Assembly (NCBI GenBank): GCA_047602425.1
Contig: JASGHG010000001.1
Location: 4,096,001-4,160,000, forward strand
Source: Nibricoccus sp.
GTDB lineage: Bacteria > Verrucomicrobiota > Verrucomicrobiia > Opitutales > Opitutaceae
DNA: 64,000 nucleotides
Direction: 5' to 3'
The notes below the pieces were generated by a model, which worked only from the letters and a program-made list of their open reading frames with translations, did no database searches and was not told the DNA's origin. The position numbers and the translations under genes were made by a program. This document shows, in pieces, positions 31,799-40,588 of this stretch (positions are counted from its first letter, which is position 1; each line of letters starts with the position of its first letter).

Positions 31799-33832
31799 AT
31801 GCTCCACCAGCTTTCACGCTCCTGTTTCCGTCTCATTGTTCTCATGTCGCTCGTGGTCGTCCGACTGCCGGCACAGACGGCCACGTTGAGCATCGATGTC
31901 ACGCAATCCATCCGCGTTGTCGATGAACGCGTGTTCGGCATCAATGCCACGATGTGGGATGGTCAGGCCGGGAGCGCGCAAACCATCTCGCTGGTTGCAG
32001 CCGCGGGCATTCGCACGATTCGCATACCGGGTGGCTCCCTTTCCGACGAATATCATTGGCGGACGAATACCAATCTGGCCAATATGTGGACTTGGTCCTC
32101 GGGCTTCAACAATTTCTCAAACCTGATCACAGGAGTAAACGCCCGGACCTTCGTCACCGTCAACTACGGCACGGGCACACCGGAGGAAGCCGCCGCCTGG
32201 GTCGCTTACGCCAACGCCAGTTCGAGCCTTCTCGGCACCGCATCCGACGTGGCCCTCGGTACCGACTCGAAGGGATACAACTGGCAGACCGCCGGCTACT
32301 GGTCGAACCTGCGAAACTCCCCAATGCTCGGCGCGAACGACGGCATGAATTTTTTGCGTGTCAGTCGGGCTACGCCTTACGGTTTGAAATATTGGGAAAT
32401 CGGCAATGAATGCTACGGTACTTGGGAAACGGATCAACAGGCTGTCGCGCACGATCCCTACACCTACGCGACCCGTGCGAGGGACTACATTGCGAAAATG
32501 AAAGCCGTGGACCCGACGATCAAAGTCGGCGTCGTGGCCGTAGCGGGCGAGGATGAAAACGCCAACAACACCAATCATCCAGCGACAAATCCGCGCACCG
32601 GCGTCGTGCACAATGGCTGGACGCCCGTCATGCTCACCACGCTCAAGAACCTCGGCGTCACGCCCGATTTTCTGATCTACCACCGTTACGAACAGGCCCC
32701 CGCCGTGGATCAGCCCGGTAATCCCGAGGGCGACGCGAAGCTCCTGCAGTCCGCGCTGACCTGGCCGCAGGATGCGGCAAAATTGCGCCAGCAACTCACG
32801 GACTACCTCGGCGCCGCCGGCGCGAATGTGGAAATCGTCGTCACGGAAAACAACTCGGTCTACGCCAGTCCCGGCAAGCAGACCACGAGCCTCGTCAATG
32901 GATTGTTCCTTGCCGACAGCATCGGCAATGTATTGCAGACCGAATTCAACGCCCTCATCTGGTGGGCGCTTCGCAACGGTCCCTCGAATGGCAACAATAA
33001 CGCAGCCGCGCTGTATGGCTGGCGCAACTACGGCGACTACGGCATTCTCACCAATGTCCCCAGCCCCACCTTTGCAGGCGCTCCCACCACGGCTTACGAA
33101 CCATATCCTACCTACTATGTGATGAAGCTGCTCTCTTACTTTGCCCGTGGAGGCGACACGGTTGTGCGCGCGACGAGCACCAACACGCTTCTTTCGGCCT
33201 ACGCGGTCAAGGCCGCCGACGGTTCGCTGCGTCTGCTGGTGATCAACAAGGACCCGGTAAACACTTACACCGGCACGATCGGCCTCACGGGGTTTACGCC
33301 CGGCACGAATGCCACGCTCTACAGCTACGGCAAAACCCAGGATGACGCAGCCAAACCAACCGGCACCGGCTCGACCGACGTCTCAGTTTCGGCTCTGACC
33401 ATATCTGGCAGCAGTTTCAACACGACCTTCGCGTCCTACTCGGTCAACGTCATTTCCTTGCCGGCATCAACCGGTTCGTCGTCGAGCAGTTCCTCTTCGT
33501 CGAGTTCATCCTCCACCAGCAGTAGTTCGTCCTCTTCCAGTTCCTCATCGAGTTCTTCCAGTTCGTCGAGCAGTTCGTCATCCTCAGGTTCTTCCTCCGG
33601 CGTCGGGCCGAGCAGCGGTCCGACATCCGGCAGTGGCGGCGGCGGCGGACCGGGACTCTGGTATTTCGCCGCATTGGTTGCCGCGGCCGTGCGACACTTG
33701 AGGAAGTGCACATCTTCCCCGCGTAGCCCGGCAAGACGACCGGTCTCGAAACGAGAGCCACGGTCTCGCCGGTTTTCGTTGCTGGTTTATGTGGAAGAAT
33801 ATTGGCAGAAAAATCATCAAAACTGCCGTTAG
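31799..33832 (+). CDS. Secreted clan GH-A glycoside hydrolase (GH51-like arabinofuranosidase-related) with poly-Ser linker and Gly-rich sorting signal
   Basis: RIPGGSLSDEYHW, TVNYG, YWEIGNECYG, VTENN; Ser tract 33476-33598; GGGGGPGLWYFAALVAAAVRHLRK. Confidence 0.8.
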   Translation: MLHQLSRSCFRLIVLMSLVVVRLPAQTATLSIDVTQSIRVVDERVFGINATMWDGQAGSAQTISLVAAAGIRTIRIPGGSLSDEYHWRTNTNLANMWTWSSGFNNFSNLITGVNARTFVTVNYGTGTPEEAAAWVAYANASSSLLGTASDVALGTDSKGYNWQTAGYWSNLRNSPMLGANDGMNFLRVSRATPYGLKYWEIGNECYGTWETDQQAVAHDPYTYATRARDYIAKMKAVDPTIKVGVVAVAGEDENANNTNHPATNPRTGVVHNGWTPVMLTTLKNLGVTPDFLIYHRYEQAPAVDQPGNPEGDAKLLQSALTWPQDAAKLRQQLTDYLGAAGANVEIVVTENNSVYASPGKQTTSLVNGLFLADSIGNVLQTEFNALIWWALRNGPSNGNNNAAALYGWRNYGDYGILTNVPSPTFAGAPTTAYEPYPTYYVMKLLSYFARGGDTVVRATSTNTLLSAYAVKAADGSLRLLVINKDPVNTYTGTIGLTGFTPGTNATLYSYGKTQDDAAKPTGTGSTDVSVSALTISGSSFNTTFASYSVNVISLPASTGSSSSSSSSSSSSSTSSSSSSSSSSSSSSSSSSSSSSSGSSSGVGPSSGPTSGSGGGGGPGLWYFAALVAAAVRHLRKCTSSPRSPARRPVSKREPRSRRFSLLVYVEEYWQKNHQNCR

Positions 33833-33970
33833 GTCCAAAACCGCGATTGCCTAACTCACTGGAATCCCGTATCTCTAACGCCATCGCACCCCCTGGATCC
33901 GCCATGCGACCTCACAAAACTTCAATCCCTGATATGCCAACGCTTCGTCCGGCATAATACACTGTTCGGC
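33828..33970 (+). other. ORF-less integron-type mini-cassette / attC-like site
   Basis: Core GTTAGGT 33828-33834, complementary inverse core GCCTAAC 33849-33855, next core GTTCGGC 33964-33970; internal symmetry weak. Confidence 0.5.
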
Positions 33971-33972
33971 AA

Positions 33973-34305
33973 ATGAAAGGCGTCTCTATCGCGTCGCTAG
34001 TTTTCGCCGGGCTGCCGCTGGTCATTTATCCGGTAGTTGCGCTGGCGGATATTATGAGTCTCGCAGGACAGTCATCAGGCGCTGAATCTGTCATGTTGAG
34101 TGTCGTTGCTACGACCTGTCAGATCGGCTCGCTCCTGTATCCAGCCGTGTATTTCCTCTGCCTTGCATTGTACCGGAAGAAGATGAAGCAGGATGAGCAG
34201 AAAAGCGCTTTTTGGTTTAGCCTTACACCCATGGCAGTCCTCCTTTTTCTATTTGCGATGTTTTATCTGTGGTCACGCGTGGACCATACAGCATGGGCGC
34301 CTTAA
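33973..34305 (+). CDS. Gene-cassette-encoded small membrane protein (3 TM), unknown function
   Basis: ATG 2 nt after core GTTCGGC; stop 6 nt before exact inverse core GCCGAAC; low GC. Confidence 0.8.
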   Translation: MKGVSIASLVFAGLPLVIYPVVALADIMSLAGQSSGAESVMLSVVATTCQIGSLLYPAVYFLCLALYRKKMKQDEQKSAFWFSLTPMAVLLFLFAMFYLWSRVDHTAWAP

Positions 34306-34311
34306 GACGGA

Positions 34312-34326
34312 GCCGAACCAGGCGCT
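34312..34326 (+). other. attC site, left part (interrupted by IS110 element)
   Basis: GCCGAACCAGGCGCT; joins to 36085-36163 to give an imperfect hairpin. Confidence 0.8.
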
Positions 34327-34489
34327 CCCCTTTAGGTAAAATCAAGGGGTAAGTTTGATTTTGCCGTCAGGGGGGAGAGGGGCGAGTCCGAGAATGGGCC
34401 TCCAGCTCGTCGGAGGACGAGCCCCGGGGGGCAGGATGTAGCAGGTGGTTTTGGTTACATGAGATGGATATGGTTTTGGCGCTTTAACC

Positions 34490-34670
34490 AGGAGCCCGGT
34501 CCTCCGCGACGATCCCCATGAGTTGGTCCAGCTTTTGAGGGCTGGCCCGGACGATACTTAAAGGGCGGTAAGACCGGGAGGCCCGCCGTCGGGGCTTTAA
34601 AACATACAGTTGAGCATCAGCGAGGCTGTGCGGAACGGCTGGTGGCCCTCAAGCGGCGGGTTTCCCGGAA
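34490..34670 (-). ncRNA. Candidate bridge/seek RNA of the IS110 element
   Basis: Two stem-loops with similar scaffold; loop 1 segments match the attC target and loop 2 segments match the circle junction; ends approximate. Confidence 0.65.
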
Positions 34671-34712
34671 AAGCAAAAGTTAATGTCGGCTAAAATAGAT
34701 CAAGGAAGTGGT

Positions 34713-35978
34713 TTAGGCGGCGGAGCGGAAAACGCGCTTCGGGTCGAAGGGTTGGGGCGAGCGTTCAAGGCCGTGGAGCAGTTTGAGGAACTTGCGGGCG
34801 ACCGCGGTCATGGCTTTGCCGCCGCACATGCCGGTGTCGCGTTTGGCGTGGTAGTATTGCCCGTAGAGTTGTCCGTGCACGACGCGTTTGAGGACGGCTT
34901 GGGCGAGGACGTGGCGCAGGCGGGCGCGGCCGCGTTTGGCTTGGCGGAGCTGGCCTTGCATGGTGCCGCTTTGGCGGGGCCGCAGGTTGAGCCCGCCGTA
35001 GCGCCAGAGTTGGCGCACGTGGGCAAAGTCCCGGAGCGGTCCGGTCTCGGCGAGGACACGGGCGAGCATGAAGGGGCTGATCAGGTCGGGATGGGCTTGC
35101 AGGCGGGTGGCGCCGCGGGCGCGCAGGCGTTCGACCAGGGCGATCATTTGCTGGCGGGTGTTGGTTCGGCGGGTGCGCAGCACGGTGAGTTCGGCAAAGA
35201 GGGCGCGCAGGTCCTCGGCGAGCAGGGCCAGCCAGTCGGGGTCGGAGTCGATCAGGGCGCAGCGCTGGGCGTCGGCGAAGAGTCGCTGGATGGTCTTTGG
35301 GCCAACGTGGTGGTTGCGCAGTTTGGCGGTGCAGCGTTCCAGGCCGTCGGCGAGGATCGCGGCGGCGTTCAGGCCGTAGAGTGCGATCGTGGCTTGGGCG
35401 GCGCGGCCTTCGAAGAGCCAGTCGTTTTTAAAGCTCAATTCGGGGAAGAGCGAGAGGAGCAGTTTATGAATCCTGTTTTTACAGCGGGTGGAGTCGCGTT
35501 CGAGCCGGTCGTAGCGGGCGTTGAGTTCGCGCAGGAGCAGCCACTCGCCTTGGAGGGGACGATCGGTCAGGGTTTTGTTCCATTTGGCCAATAGTAAAAT
35601 CGTGCGGGGATCTTTGATGTCGCTTTTGCCGGTATCGTTGTTCTCGACCACTTGCATCTGGTGGACGGCTTCGCCGTTGACCAAGGCGGTGGCGCAGCCG
35701 AGTTGGCGGGCCGCGCGCAGCAGGCGCCGTTCGTATCCGCCGGTGGGTTCGCAGAGGATGCGCACGCCGCCAAGGCCGTGCTGGCGGGCGTGGGTGTTGA
35801 GTTGTTCCAGCCATGAGAGGATGGCCTCATTGCGATTGGCGATATGGCCTTGGTGCGCCTGGGCCCCGAGTTCACCGTACCAGTCCAGTGCTTTTTGCCC
35901 AACGTCGACGGCGATATCCCAGCGAGTTTCCGGTTGCCCGGAGTGCGTTCTGCCATTAAGTGCTTTGTTCGTTATCAT
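34713..35978 (-). CDS. IS110-family DEDD recombinase/transposase
   Basis: RuvC-like DIAVDV, CEPTGGY, KSDIKD; C-terminal LAETG..F, YGGL, RQSG catalytic Ser, KRG..LR, AVARK; ORF intact (421 aa). Confidence 0.95.
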   Translation of the reverse strand: MITNKALNGRTHSGQPETRWDIAVDVGQKALDWYGELGAQAHQGHIANRNEAILSWLEQLNTHARQHGLGGVRILCEPTGGYERRLLRAARQLGCATALVNGEAVHQMQVVENNDTGKSDIKDPRTILLLAKWNKTLTDRPLQGEWLLLRELNARYDRLERDSTRCKNRIHKLLLSLFPELSFKNDWLFEGRAAQATIALYGLNAAAILADGLERCTAKLRNHHVGPKTIQRLFADAQRCALIDSDPDWLALLAEDLRALFAELTVLRTRRTNTRQQMIALVERLRARGATRLQAHPDLISPFMLARVLAETGPLRDFAHVRQLWRYGGLNLRPRQSGTMQGQLRQAKRGRARLRHVLAQAVLKRVVHGQLYGQYYHAKRDTGMCGGKAMTAVARKFLKLLHGLERSPQPFDPKRVFRSAA

Positions 35979-36084
35979 TGTTAGATTGCGGCTCCGGCTA
36001 AGGAGTGCCGGTTACGTGCTTGTCACCGTCCAGTCCATGCCGGGGCCGCTTCCTTATGTTATCTCATCCGCCTATTAGTAGCAT

Positions 36085-36163
36085 ACAGCGCAACGCCTAT
36101 GATCGTCCATTTTCTTTTTATCCCTGCCCGCTGGTACGGCGTGGCTGACCTGTAACGTTGGCT
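36085..36163 (+). other. attC site, right part
   Basis: ACAGCGCAACGCC...GGCGTGGCTGACCTGTAACGTTGGCT; pairs ACGCC/GGCGT, CAGC/GCTG, CAGG/CCTG, AAC/GTT. Confidence 0.8.
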
Positions 36164-36175
36164 TAAAAACACGCT

Positions 36176-36457
36176 ATGCGCCTCGGACTGATTTTTATCG
36201 GTATCATACTTATCGTCGGGGGATTTTCCGGCATCAGGAACAACTCGACATATCGCTTATCCCGGACTTACAGCTCTCGTGAGCTTAGGAGTTTGCCGCG
36301 AGAAAAGTGGGGCGACCAGACGGACGATCCAGTGGTGAACTCGCAAGCGATAGGATGGTTAGCGATTGGGTCAGGATGCTTCATAGTGGTCGCGTCGGTT
36401 TCAGTAAGACGACTTCGTTTCCCGCGGGCCAACCAACAACGCTCCACTCGAGAATGA
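36176..36457 (+). CDS. Gene-cassette-encoded small membrane protein (2 TM), unknown function
   Basis: ATG 12 nt after core GTTGGCT; complementary GGCCAAC at 36427-36433 inside its 3' end. Confidence 0.65.
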   Translation: MRLGLIFIGIILIVGGFSGIRNNSTYRLSRTYSSRELRSLPREKWGDQTDDPVVNSQAIGWLAIGSGCFIVVASVSVRRLRFPRANQQRSTRE

Positions 36458-36601
36458 TCATGATGTCTTGTAGTAGCGGAAAGGGACGAACCAATGCCTG
36501 AGGCCAACGGGTAAGGGAAATAGTCGCGGAGAGGGCAGGCTTTGGCGAGCGAAGAGCGCTTACGGAAAGCGATGAGGTCAGGTTTTTTTTAACGGCTAAA
36601 T

Positions 36602-36666: not shown

Positions 36667-39600
36667 TCAGAAATGACCTGAGTTTGTGTAGCTCACGCCT
36701 CCGGTCGTGTAGCTGATCGACCAGGTGTCTCCGGTGGAGATGTGCGTGGTTCCGTTGCCATTGGTCGCGGCGTGGAACTGTTTGTTCGTGCCGGCGCCCA
36801 GCGTCTGACCCGAGACGAGGGTGAAGGTATACACGAGACCGTTGTGCGCGTTCGTGATCTGCGAACCGATCGTGTTGTACATGCCGTTATAGACTACGCT
36901 TTGGGTGGGTTGAATGGTAATGGTCACGGTTAGGGCGGTGAGCGGCGACGTATTGGCCAGAACGAGTGATTGATCGTTGTACCAGCCGGAGAGGTTGTTG
37001 GTCACGGAGGCGGTGACACCTCCGCCGCCCGTGCCGCCGCTGCTGGAGGACGAACTCGACGAACTGGAGGAGGACGAACTGCTCGATGAGCTGGAGGAGC
37101 TTGATGACGAGGAACTGCTTGAAGAAGAACTGCTGCTGCTGCTTGATGAAGACGAGCTGCTGCTCGACGAGGAACTGCTCGAGGACGAGCCGCCCGAAGT
37201 ATTCACGGTGAGGGCAATCGTCGTCATGCGCGTGAGCGAGCCGCTGACGCCGGTGACCGTGACGTCGGCTGTGCCAAGGGTGGCGGTGCTACTGGCGGTG
37301 AAGGTGACGGTACTTGTACCTGTCGTTGGGTTCGTGCCGAAGGAGGCGGTGACACCGCTGGGAAGGCCGCTGGCGCTTAAGGTGACGCTGCTAGCGAAGC
37401 CATTCAATTTGTTCACCGTGATGGTCGACGTGGTGGTCGAACTGCGATTGACCGTTGCCGATGTCGGGTTGGCCGAAAGGGTGAAATCGGCGGTGGTGGT
37501 GGCGGTGGAGTAAACGATGCCGCGTCCGTTGGTACCGACGTAACAACGGCCATAGGTGTTGCGATCACCGGTGATGCAAAAGGAGAGGTTGCCGTACTGG
37601 TGAGCGTTGTCGTTGATGCGCGTCCACGAGGCGCCGGCGTTGTCGGATTGATAGATGCCCCAGACGCCGCCGATTTTGCCGGTCAGATAAATTGCCGGGT
37701 AGGTCTGTCCGGTCGCGGCTTTGCCGAACCCGATGGCGTAGGCAAGATCGACGTTGGAGAGCTTCGTAAAGCTCGCGCCAGAATTGGTCGAGTGCCAGAG
37801 ACCGCCCGTGGTGGGGGACGTCGCAACTTGTCCCGCCAGCCAGATATCGCCGGCGAGGCCGAAGACGGCTTTGAACTGTCCATAAGTTGGAAGACCGGTG
37901 GCGGCCGTGGCCGTGAAGGCTGCGCCATTGTTGGTGCTAACGTAGAACGTGCCGTTGAGGAAGCCATAGAACTTTCCGGCGGTGGCACGGTCGGAACGCA
38001 CGCTGGCGCTGGCGGGAATGCCGCTCGAAGCGGTCCAACTGGAGCCGCCCGTGGTGGTGTAGTAAACGCCGACACCGCCGGGGCTCCAGACGATGTTCTG
38101 GTTGTTGACGCAGGAAACGGCCGCCTGCCCGCCGCTGGTGATGCCGGAAGGTTGGGTGCTGGGCTCGTACCAGTTGGCGCCGCCGTCGTTGGAGAGGGCG
38201 ATGCTGCGACCGGGGTCGCCTAAAGTGGTGTTACCGCCATCGCCGGTGCGAACGAGGTTGGAAGGCGCGAGCTCCGAAAAGTCGATGCTGCGATTGGTGC
38301 CCCAAAGGAGTTTGTAGGTACTGGGTTGTACGGTAGTCAGGCTGGTGTGGTTGAAACCACCGATATCGGCGAGCGCGCTGAGCAAGGGAGAACCTGTGGG
38401 CGGACTGATCAGGTCGAGCACGGCGGTTTCCTCGATGCCGAGGACCATGGGCTTGACCGTGAATGTGGCCGTGGTGGCGGGATCCCAGTTGGTGAGATTC
38501 GTGCTGCCGTAGAGCGTGGCGCCGGTGCCGTAGAACATGCGGTTGGAGTTGAACGGATCGATTTGGATGTCGTCGACCATCCAACCGTATTTGAGCGCGG
38601 GCTCGGGGGCGGAGTAGTTGCCGGGTATGGTCAGCCAGGGAGTGACAGTGACGTCGAGAATGCCGCGACGCGACCAGTTGGGGTAACTCGTGTAGTCCCA
38701 AATCTGGCTCCAAGTGGTGCCGCCATTGGTGCTGCGCCAGATGCGGGTGTCGGGCCACCAAGAGTTGAGCGCGCTGACCATGACGGTGGTGGGGACTTGT
38801 TTATCGATGGTGAGGCCGCCGTAGCCGAAGTAGGCGTTGGACGTGTCGGTCGAAGGCACGGGGCTGATGCGTGTCCATACGCCCGTGGCGGTGGCGTACT
38901 TCCAAACATCGCCGAGGCTGCCGTCGTAGGGGCCGGCCTGATTATTGTAGGTCAGATAGAGAAAACCATTCACTGTATCTAAAACGCCGTGGTGCGGCAT
39001 GAAACCGGTGGGCTGACCGGCGACGCGGGTCCAGGACGTGCCGCCATTGGTGGACATGTAGAGGCCATTTTGCAGATCGGCGACGCCGACGTAGATCGTT
39101 TGGGTGGCGCCGCCGGCAGTGCCGGTGCGTTTGTCGAAGGTGACCCAGAGGACGCCGGGCGTGTGGTTGAGGTAGTCGTTGATGTCGCTGGCGGATTGCA
39201 CGTAATTGCCGGCGTTGGGGAAACTCGTGATCTTGCTCCACGTGACGGCGCCATCGGTGCTTTTCCAGAGTCCGTTGCCGTCGGAAGCGGCGTAATAAAG
39301 GATGTTGTCGTTGTTGGGATCGTATTGGAGACGTTCGCCCATGCCGCGGCCGGGCATGTTGCCGCCGATTTTGAATGGCATCTGCGTTTGTGACCACGTG
39401 GCGCCTTGATCGGAAGAGCGGAGCATCACGCCGTTGGAAGGATCCCACGTGTTGGTGTACATGCCGGCGGCAACAACGACCTTGTTGGCATTGAGCGGCG
39501 AGGCGGCGATGCTGGCGCAGCCGAGCAGATGCCAGTCGTCCCAACCGACCCAGTCCATGAGTGGGATCCAAGTGCTGGTGGCTTGATTCCAACGGTAAGC

Positions 39601-39801
39601 ACCGCCGATATCGGTGCGTGCGTAGATGACATTCGCGGAAGCCTGGCTGAACACGACGGCGGGAACATAACCGCCGCCACCGATCTGAACGTTCTGCCAG
39701 GTAGCGGCATGCGCGACGAAAGCGGTGAGGAAAAAGCAGAGCAGGGCGAGCAAGCGCGCGCAGGACGCGCGAAGCGAGGGAACGGCTTTGGGCAGTTGCA
39801 T
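36667..39801 (-). CDS. GH74 xyloglucanase with Ig-like module, 50-Ser linker and C-terminal putative CBM
   Basis: WQNVQIGGGGYV, YARTDIGGAYRW, GGNMPGRGMGERL, GIEET, LADIGGF, YVGTNGRGI; BNR repeats; start ATG 39801. Confidence 0.93.
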   Translation of the reverse strand: MQLPKAVPSLRASCARLLALLCFFLTAFVAHAATWQNVQIGGGGYVPAVVFSQASANVIYARTDIGGAYRWNQATSTWIPLMDWVGWDDWHLLGCASIAASPLNANKVVVAAGMYTNTWDPSNGVMLRSSDQGATWSQTQMPFKIGGNMPGRGMGERLQYDPNNDNILYYAASDGNGLWKSTDGAVTWSKITSFPNAGNYVQSASDINDYLNHTPGVLWVTFDKRTGTAGGATQTIYVGVADLQNGLYMSTNGGTSWTRVAGQPTGFMPHHGVLDTVNGFLYLTYNNQAGPYDGSLGDVWKYATATGVWTRISPVPSTDTSNAYFGYGGLTIDKQVPTTVMVSALNSWWPDTRIWRSTNGGTTWSQIWDYTSYPNWSRRGILDVTVTPWLTIPGNYSAPEPALKYGWMVDDIQIDPFNSNRMFYGTGATLYGSTNLTNWDPATTATFTVKPMVLGIEETAVLDLISPPTGSPLLSALADIGGFNHTSLTTVQPSTYKLLWGTNRSIDFSELAPSNLVRTGDGGNTTLGDPGRSIALSNDGGANWYEPSTQPSGITSGGQAAVSCVNNQNIVWSPGGVGVYYTTTGGSSWTASSGIPASASVRSDRATAGKFYGFLNGTFYVSTNNGAAFTATAATGLPTYGQFKAVFGLAGDIWLAGQVATSPTTGGLWHSTNSGASFTKLSNVDLAYAIGFGKAATGQTYPAIYLTGKIGGVWGIYQSDNAGASWTRINDNAHQYGNLSFCITGDRNTYGRCYVGTNGRGIVYSTATTTADFTLSANPTSATVNRSSTTTSTITVNKLNGFASSVTLSASGLPSGVTASFGTNPTTGTSTVTFTASSTATLGTADVTVTGVSGSLTRMTTIALTVNTSGGSSSSSSSSSSSSSSSSSSSSSSSSSSSSSSSSSSSSSSSSSSSSSSSSSSGGTGGGGVTASVTNNLSGWYNDQSLVLANTSPLTALTVTITIQPTQSVVYNGMYNTIGSQITNAHNGLVYTFTLVSGQTLGAGTNKQFHAATNGNGTTHISTGDTWSISYTTGGVSYTNSGHF
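37039..37188 (-). repeat. Poly-serine linker (50 codons, mixed Ser codons)
   Basis: 150 nt of uninterrupted TCN/AGY codons. Confidence 0.9.
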
Positions 39802-40588
39802 GATTTTGGGGGTATTTAAGGGTTCGACAGACGAACCGCGGGCCCTGACCTCGCGCCGGAAACAAGGGTAGAATCCGTGGAATGAGGCTCGAACAAAGCC
39901 CAGATTTAGCATTAAATCAAGGGCAAAGGGCGGAACTGGGGGCAGTCGCGCCGCCAGCGCGACGAGCGAGGAGACCGTTGAGGAATCCGTTCACTGGGCG
40001 CGAAAAATTTGTCCTCGGATTCCGCCTGTAATTCGAACTCAGCGAAGAATCTGTTGAGGCAGCGCGAAAGCTTCGCGCGACACGCTCCGTTGAAATTTTT
40101 GGGCAAGGCATTGTAGCGGGAACCGCGCACGTTCGATGGTGTCGGCAGGCGGACACATCACCTTCGCGACAGAGCTCGCGTTTTAAACGCGCGTTTTTTT
40201 GTGCCCGCGGGCGCCCGCTCGAATCGACGAGCGTGCGTGGAGCACGGACGATTTCGCGCGGCCTTTTCCAATTTGTGAGCTTGCTAATTCGTGCTCGCGA
40301 TTTCCATCGTGTGCAGAAATTTTTCGCGCCCAAATTTGGCGCTTGGCGGCTTTTTTAGCTGGGGGATTGCCCCGATTCGACGTTCGCGAACGCCCCATTC
40401 GAAAAACTTAAGAGCGTGTGAAGCGCGTCTACTCCCTTCGTCAAAAATATCTGTAGCAAAAATCCGAATACAAATTTTTAGCCGGGATTTTTTCAGCTCT
40501 TTGACACGTTCGGTAATTTTTCGCGAAACGTTCTGCGCGCGGAGAAAATGAGCTACTGCACAGTGGATTGCGTGTCGCTGAGGCCCGC

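Follow-up and report, generated by a model that had tools for sequence, protein, structure and literature searches.

An integron attC site is delimited by R'' and R' cores and carries complementary L boxes; the box names, and what the integron integrase IntI requires of such a site, are used here in their customary sense. That elements of the insertion sequence (IS) family IS110 insert under RNA guidance, and that IS1111 elements target attC, is already known. The IS1111-attC elements (ISKpn4, ISPst6, ISPa21, ISPa25 and ISPa62; PMC11187229) insert in the R''/L'' arm, antiparallel to the cassettes and without target duplication, and carry their guide RNA (seekRNA) downstream of the recombinase gene, with the top-strand match placed before the bottom-strand match. 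Group IIC-attC introns (PMC3001079) are likewise mobile elements specialised for attC, but act by a ribozyme and reverse-transcriptase mechanism. In IS621 and ISCro4 (PMC11208160, PMC13626964), a recombinase with a RuvC-DEDD plus serine domain fold works with a two-loop RNA that has 9-nt left guides, 4-nt right guides and handshake bases; a short sub-terminal repeat flanks the donor window, and a promoter lies across the junction. Here we analyse a 64,000-nucleotide stretch of Nibricoccus sp. (contig JASGHG010000001.1, positions 4,096,001 to 4,160,000; hereafter the window), in which an IS110-family element of 1,758 bp (34327-36084, minus strand) interrupts an attC site. We interpret it, with a probability of about 0.85, as a recently spreading bridge-recombinase element from a separate clade of long recombinases (420-435 amino acids, aa), with a guide RNA set on integron attC. 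What is new is that RNA-guided invasion of attC has a second, apparently independent and widespread lineage, in which the guides can be read and a one-base core is predicted.

The interrupted attC site and its counterparts in the genome

Removing positions 34327-36084 in silico joins the left part of an attC-like site (34312-34326, plus strand: R'' at 34312-34318, a 5-nt spacer and the first three bases of L'') to its right part (36085-36163, plus strand: the rest of L'' at 36085-36089, a variable middle, L' at 36144-36150, a spacer and the R' core at 36157-36163). The result is a site of 94 nt, which the element entered 8 nt past the R'' inverse core. An uninterrupted site elsewhere in the source genome (G000:5144673-5144762), part of an array that adjoins an integrase, is 93% identical to the rejoined sequence over 90 nt (E 1e-31), and similar sites are repeated in arrays. 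The L boxes of the rejoined site pair at 6/7 positions with one extrahelical base, located right at the insertion point, and the R boxes pair at 4/7. The minimum-energy DNA fold of the 94-mer reaches only about -11.4 kcal/mol and leaves the full attC stem unformed; given this weakness, the site is identified as attC by its boxes and by homology rather than by fold energy. The element is antiparallel to the plus-strand cassette open reading frames (ORFs) on either side, and target duplication is absent, one A/T pair being assignable to either side of the element.

Within the element, a gene running from 35978 to 34713 (minus strand) encodes a DEDD/serine recombinase of 421 aa. It is flanked by a right, downstream non-coding end of 386 bp (34327-34712, minus strand), which carries the guide RNA, and by a left non-coding end of 106 bp (35979-36084, minus strand). 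Short sub-terminal repeats lie at 34332-34336 in the right end and 36071-36075 in the left (both minus strand); the element has no long sub-terminal repeat, its best 12-nt window matching at 6/12 positions versus 12/12 in an ISPa25-like control (L181). The recombinase scores 58.6 bits against PF01548, the N-terminal RuvC-like DEDD domain (cut-off 29), and 52 bits against PF02371, the C-terminal domain with the SG serine (cut-off 21.3). When the protein is aligned with reference IS110/IS1111 proteins, residues D25, E77, D120, D123 and S337 fall in the catalytic columns, and S337 is invariant across 47 homologues. An AlphaFold model (predicted local distance difference test, pLDDT, 86.5) finds its best Foldseek matches in IS621 and ISCro4 (E 3e-14).

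Nine copies of the recombinase are present in the source genome; seven, including the one in the window, are identical as proteins, and two carry one change. All nine share one orientation and have both ends at one common attC base, so the insertion in the window is not due to chance. Seven other uninterrupted copies share 98.9-99.6% DNA identity with the window copy. One copy has itself received an IS3-family insertion (G000:C1:290760-292064) in the donor loop of its guide RNA, with an apparent 3-bp duplication; this IS3-family element has three near-identical genomic copies, and its insertion should disable the interrupted copy's own guide RNA. An earlier note, made from the letters of the stretch, had described the excision that leaves a 94-nt attC with the insertion 8 nt past the inverse core, the antiparallel placement without duplication, the intact DEDD set with its SG serine, and a long downstream end that lacks convincing sub-terminal repeats; all of this was reproduced. 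It had also suggested checking whether other copies share the attC position, which they do.

A profile derived from attC sites of this genome, the rejoined ones among them, recovers 52 attC-like sites above 20 bits, mostly in three arrays, and nine of the 52 are occupied by the element; the 68-bit score of the window site is not used as evidence. Two integron integrases, encoded by genes above the TIGR02249 cut-off, adjoin two of the three arrays, near 0.92 Mb and 5.13-5.146 Mb of the source genome. In both (G000:C1:919151-920488 and G000:C1:5146532-5147998), an N-terminal extension of some 130-150 aa precedes the part that matches TIGR02249. At G000:C1:287000-302500, some 20 attC-like sites and three copies of the element form an array for which no adjoining integron integrase was found; the nearest tyrosine recombinase, at 320.5 kb, looks XerC-like by eye. 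One of the integrase-linked arrays also holds a second, unrelated IS110-family element (L173, G000:C1:5137500-5138900; 370 aa, above the NF033542 cut-off, single copy); its left flank resembles an attC R' end, and the remainder of that attC is not evident. In contigs from three sequencing runs the element is covered patchily, and one contig shows an empty attC with different flanks, which is uninformative on circles and expression.

A predicted guide RNA and its match to attC

Relatives were gathered by a word-indexed search (195 homologues at E<=1e-10 among 8,000 scored) and by a profile search of 1.84 billion representatives, in which full-length members score 267-655 bits, followed by a gap down to about 190 bits. 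Those homologues of the word-indexed search that have a named source come from Opitutales, which points to an opitutal verrucomicrobium as the probable host. A single-protein scan of genome contigs gave no relative, whereas an alignment-based scan of genome contigs did. We analysed 76 genome loci (best 80 of 88) and 80 metagenome loci (best 80 of 296). Of 169 loci, 150 have a readable downstream region, 137 of these match the RNA profile and 134 yield guides; the left end was mapped at 94 loci, the right end at 92 and both at 65, and the counts given for the clade rest on these subsets.

A bridge RNA explaining the specificity of the element, absent from the earlier note, is predicted in the downstream end. 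The fold of this end has two arms, each with an internal loop (z -2.4), and the RNA motif is present in 137 of the 150 readable loci. In a consensus fold of 35 sequences less than 85% alike, both arms are kept with many compensatory pairs, and the internal loops measure 12+14 and 15+15 nt. From fold and consensus, the putative core of the predicted RNA in the window spans 34495-34660 (minus strand), with two hairpin arms each bearing a large internal loop. Four guides can be placed on it, all on the minus strand. Target guide 1 (34634-34642, 9 nt) reads the R''-side half of attC, as judged by covariation; target guide 2 (34603-34609) comprises 4 nt and the shared base, then donor-matching handshake bases. 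Donor guide 1 (34551-34559) partially matches the left end of the element and is the weakest of the four; donor guide 2 (34510-34517) matches the last bases of the right end and is followed by target-matching handshake bases. In element orientation the top-strand match lies 5' of the bottom-strand match, which is the IS1111 order (PMC11187229). Read along the top strand of attC, the guides show the layout described for IS621 (PMC11208160, PMC13626964): a 9-nt left guide, a 4-nt right guide and handshake bases, with the crossover just 3' of a T. Compared with IS621/ISCro4, the RNA of the window element lies downstream and reads the junction opposite to the gene orientation, the target is attC and not a repetitive extragenic palindromic (REP) sequence, and the protein is about 95 aa longer. 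A target-resembling motif near 34480 lacks conservation in relatives and was for that reason rejected as a candidate guide.

Across the clade, the guides change with their targets. Target guide 2 matches the left flank at 4.35 of 6 positions versus 2.36 after shuffling (43 distinct guides), and target guide 1 matches the right flank at 6.64 of 9 versus 4.71 (39 distinct guides); in each case none of 5,000 shuffles reaches the observed value. The second loop matches the element ends. Three bases of donor guide 2 were used to place the right end, so that only its fourth base is a test, and this base matches at 0.59 versus 0.33 shuffled. For the study of bridge recombinases, the natural covariation within the clade makes the four guides readable, along with the handshake bases.

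Could such an RNA have been borrowed? An independent recombinase may have acquired its guide-RNA module long ago from an IS1111-attC-like element, in which case attC targeting would have arisen once. Both RNAs lie downstream of the gene, their guide order is alike and they address the same L'' dinucleotide. However, the two RNAs have no detectable sequence similarity (at E<=10 our RNA profile finds nothing in the downstream regions of three IS1111-attC elements), the end geometry differs, and the donor is read here by a simple second internal loop versus the multi-loop structure of many IS1111 RNAs (PMC11208160). We regard such a transfer as unlikely.

The match between guide and target also predicts which sites are occupied. 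The 13-base site spelled by the guides, with one position made two-fold degenerate for the two guide variants and one for wobble, occurs ten times in the genome once the copies are removed, each time in an attC. Seven of these ten perfectly matching sites are occupied, versus 2 of the 42 other attC sites (Fisher p 3e-5). A choice of target made mainly through the folded attC hairpin or by the protein, the RNA match being secondary, would fit the clade's near-complete fidelity to attC although its RNA is reprogrammable, as well as the insertion beside the extrahelical base and the fact that the shorter class makes up 8/9 occupied sites versus 11/35 empty ones in this genome. Against it, the guides change with the targets base by base, and one clade member (L126:2300-2700) combines changed target guides with a matching non-attC flank, a case of natural retargeting. 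The length bias of occupied sites is explained by sequence, because occupancy follows the guide match, and selection by shorter attC length was dropped as the poorer account of occupancy. That the hairpin or the protein leads the choice therefore appears quite unlikely to us.

Core, handshake bases and predicted direction of exchange

Donor and target agree at the crossover base, whereas the neighbouring, second base is equal in only 9 of 47 element types and differs between donor and target in 9/9 copies of the source genome. To judge from sequence, the element thus departs from the two-base core shared by donor and target in IS621, a CT pair: it appears to have a single shared base, and the other position behaves like a handshake base. 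In part, the shared base follows from the rules by which we located the ends, which ask for A at the left end and for either A or G following the right end. The predicted one-base core is directly testable and relevant to programmability; if true, it would loosen the demand that present bridge editors make on the core.

Each short guide is followed by two bases that agree with the incoming rather than the resident partner. In the target loop they match the donor in 47/47 and 44/47 element types, and in the donor loop they match the target in 28/47 and 30/47; altogether, 149 of 188 positions match after exchange versus 46 before. Counted by element type, 44 of 47 favour the post-exchange state, three are even and none favours the pre-exchange state. 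In IS621, an asymmetry of this kind pushes towards insertion and works against excision (PMC13626964). Of 47 junctions made by joining the ends, 43 contain a predicted sigma-70-like promoter at 8/12 or better, versus 12.5 after shuffling. In the window element the predicted promoter is a weak consensus match (8/12), with a -35 box at 34340-34345 (minus strand) in the right end and a weak -10 box in the left end (35979-36084).

We envision a pathway in which the ends are joined into a circle, creating a promoter across the junction. The downstream RNA would fold into a target loop and a donor loop, the former pairing with about 13 bases that span the R''-L'' arm of attC and the latter with the circle junction. 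One strand would then be exchanged just after the T of L'' on the attC top strand. Exchange at this point would account for an element antiparallel to the cassettes, beside the extrahelical base and without duplication, and exchange of one strand would explain the tolerance of the mismatched core position. CazIS110 is described as inserting mainly into the top strand and as moving by copy-out (10.1101/2025.10.25.684509); copy-out has also been reported for IS621 (10.64898/2026.08.31.748434) and for ISEc11, the donor in all three being left in place.

Since handshake pairing favours insertion, an invaded attC probably stays broken. The cassette would no longer be excisable by IntI at that site, and the element would spread by copy-out. 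Lasting loss of attC was likewise inferred for ISPa21, with the remark that there is little experimental evidence (PMC11616780). The freezing of the cassette proposed for this locus may thus hold, but its proposed duration, until excision restores attC, is doubtful. If excision were precise and regulated, the element would be a reversible switch with which the host unlocks cassettes. Its scarless boundaries would suit this role, and in IS621 post-excision junctions, with the restored site, were detected in E. coli (PMC13626964). Nevertheless, the handshake bases oppose excision in 44/47 element types, a restored target was reportedly not detected for ISEc11, movement by copy-out is described for IS621 and CazIS110, and no sign of host regulation was seen in our analysis. 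We give a reversible switch little credence. For integrons, a second, apparently independent attC parasite that is predicted to be hard to remove would shape the freezing and decay of cassette arrays in many environmental phyla; if the broader view set out below is true, the clade would generally lock the cassettes of environmental integrons in place.

Extent of the clade and its place among IS110 recombinases

Clade members are recombinases of 420-435 aa and are rare per genome, being found in 2 of 200 same-family genomes and 2 of 400 same-phylum genomes. Among 74 distinct right flanks, the attC core GTT occurs at +9 to +11 in 62 and within one base of this place in 68. It is likewise found in 85 of 91 loci (seven copies of the source genome included), which by their record labels belong to Verrucomicrobiota, Thermodesulfobacteriota, Nitrospirota, Myxococcota, Bacteroidota and one Halobacteriota bin; of the Thermodesulfobacteriota-labelled records with a mapped right end, 15/15 have attC-type flanks. 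When the sites are rebuilt, 35 of 53 distinct ones (again with seven of the genome's own copies) pass an attC box-pairing test, versus 4.6 (maximum 11) with shuffled flanks. At the 65 loci with both ends mapped, the right end has a median of 367 bp and the left end about 102 bp, and the best 12-nt sub-terminal repeat window matches at 6-10 of 12 positions, with nine loci at 10 and none at 11 or 12.

The recombinase is 19-22% identical to those of ISPa25 and ISPa62, no higher than to IS621-like or Firmicute IS110 proteins (20-25%) or to long Bacillota/Alphaproteobacteria IS110 proteins. Its nearest annotated relatives are such long IS110-family transposases of Bacillota and Alphaproteobacteria (410-432 aa, 24-29% identity), which lie across a long branch; their resemblance to IS650 and ISMex12/ISRel25 was judged by eye. 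The clade's RNA profile has no full-length match in three plasmid loci of this sister group, with one weak 44-nt hit. In a quick tree of 30 proteins, the clade has a stem of 1.21 substitutions per site and full support in the Shimodaira-Hasegawa-like approximate likelihood ratio test (SH-aLRT 100), and an approximately unbiased (AU) test rejects its grouping with the ISPa25-like L181 and L182 (p-AU 2e-53); ISPa25 and ISPa62 themselves were compared pairwise only. A quick tree of 71 proteins without IS1111 references gives a stem of 1.45 with a support of 94. The view of the earlier note that the element may represent a distinct clade thus gains support from the phylogeny it had proposed, whereas its idea of a Planctomycetes-Verrucomicrobia-Chlamydiae (PVC) lineage equivalent is not supported: attC-type flanks across many phyla show that the clade is not PVC-specific, and it is unrelated to IS1111-attC.

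References for IS1111-attC came from a motif search of 401 genomes (six hits, two of them intact ISPa25-like elements with attC-type flanks) and from a plasmid search that recovered ISPa25 and ISPa62, together with one relative, from class 1 integrons; L181 shares 55% identity with ISPa25. In the references GTT lies at +7 to +9, which places their crossover 2 nt from that of the window clade (GTT 7-9 versus 9-11 bases from the element end); the two crossovers lie on opposite sides of one L'' dinucleotide. Where the repeat was measured they carry perfect 12-14-bp repeats with 7- and 3-bp extensions; the published elements have near-perfect 11-13-bp sub-terminal repeats with 7/3-bp extensions (PMC11187229). 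The window clade has only a short conserved repeat. The IS1111-attC recombinases are also shorter (347-352 versus 421 aa, IS1111-group transposases having 330-350 aa) and fall in another part of the tree, their hosts belong to different phyla, and the sequence of their RNA is unrelated to that of the window clade. The window element works like IS1111-attC, but it is not a member. A downstream non-coding region has already been noted in some IS110-family elements (PMC11187229), so this trait alone is not new; the clade instead unbundles the 'IS1111' traits, in that a downstream RNA with reversed guide order is separable from long repeats and from the protein clade.

That the element is a very divergent member of the ISKpn4/ISPst6/ISPa21/ISPa25 group, with attC targeting inherited from a common ancestor, is very improbable and already largely refuted: it shares orientation and attC arm with ISPa25 and ISPa62, and the long downstream non-coding end and top-before-bottom order with IS1111 elements at large (PMC11187229), but protein length, identity, the AU test, the absence of 11-13-bp repeats, the 2-nt shift in crossover and the lack of any RNA-profile hit in the three IS1111-attC regions all speak against it. 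Beyond the reading of the element as a bridge recombinase from a separate clade, we lean slightly towards a broader view, in which attC targeting by RNA-guided recombinases would have arisen at least twice. The clade would have converged on the L'' dinucleotide of IS1111-attC with an opposite-side crossover, and would have kept its target over very long distances with guides tracking the host attC; by its one-base core, it would natively join donors to targets without a dinucleotide in common.

Several points weigh against our interpretation of the element and its clade. Donor guide 1 matches only 4-6 bases. Of the eight copies with the common guide 1, four, the window copy included, sit at a site with one mismatch; so either the mismatched guide-1 position is tolerant or the RNA of a variant copy acts in trans. 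Related sequences are not independent, and the shuffle tests and p-values therefore overstate significance. The shared core base is independently visible only in multi-copy genomes. In six of the 74 right flanks, GTT is found neither at its expected place nor one base to either side, and 18 of the 53 rebuilt sites fail the attC box test. Both trees come from quick IQ-TREE runs, have long branches and include few references. Finally, the recombinase scores 111 bits (E 7e-32) against the NCBIfam IS110 model NF033542, below the curated cut-off of 140, a score that reflects divergence from the model.

In the open full-text literature, searched through titles and abstract openings, we found no attC targeting by a clade outside IS1111; ISfinder and subscription journals lie outside this scope, and a prior record there is possible. 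By eye, no row similar to the clade's motifs appeared in the ISfinder-derived set of PMC11187229, where a positive control was found, nor was a recognisable row present in the part of supplement file 3 of PMC11208160 that was searched. In one relative (L006:1050-1500, in genome G038), the copy is 5'-truncated and follows a fragment that resembles a tyrosine recombinase gene.

The surroundings of the window's site complete the description. It is an outlier with no adjoining integrase and two cassette-type ORFs of no known family, both on the plus strand: one of 110 aa, hydrophobic and without a Pfam family (33973-34305), and one of 93 aa, also without a Pfam family (36176-36457). Just 5' of the first lies, to judge from sequence, a probable R'-type, GTTRRRY-like core (33964-33970, plus strand). 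Rfam gave only chance-level matches in the interrupted region, mostly to a terminator at 36.6 kb. Positions 36484-36510, 3' of the 93-aa ORF, resemble the decayed left half of an attC that the genome's attC profile leaves unscored. The cassette pair is flanked by large genes (31799-33832 and 36667-39912) which, without a Pfam family at E<=0.001, encode secreted-looking, carbohydrate-enzyme-like products with long poly-serine linkers.

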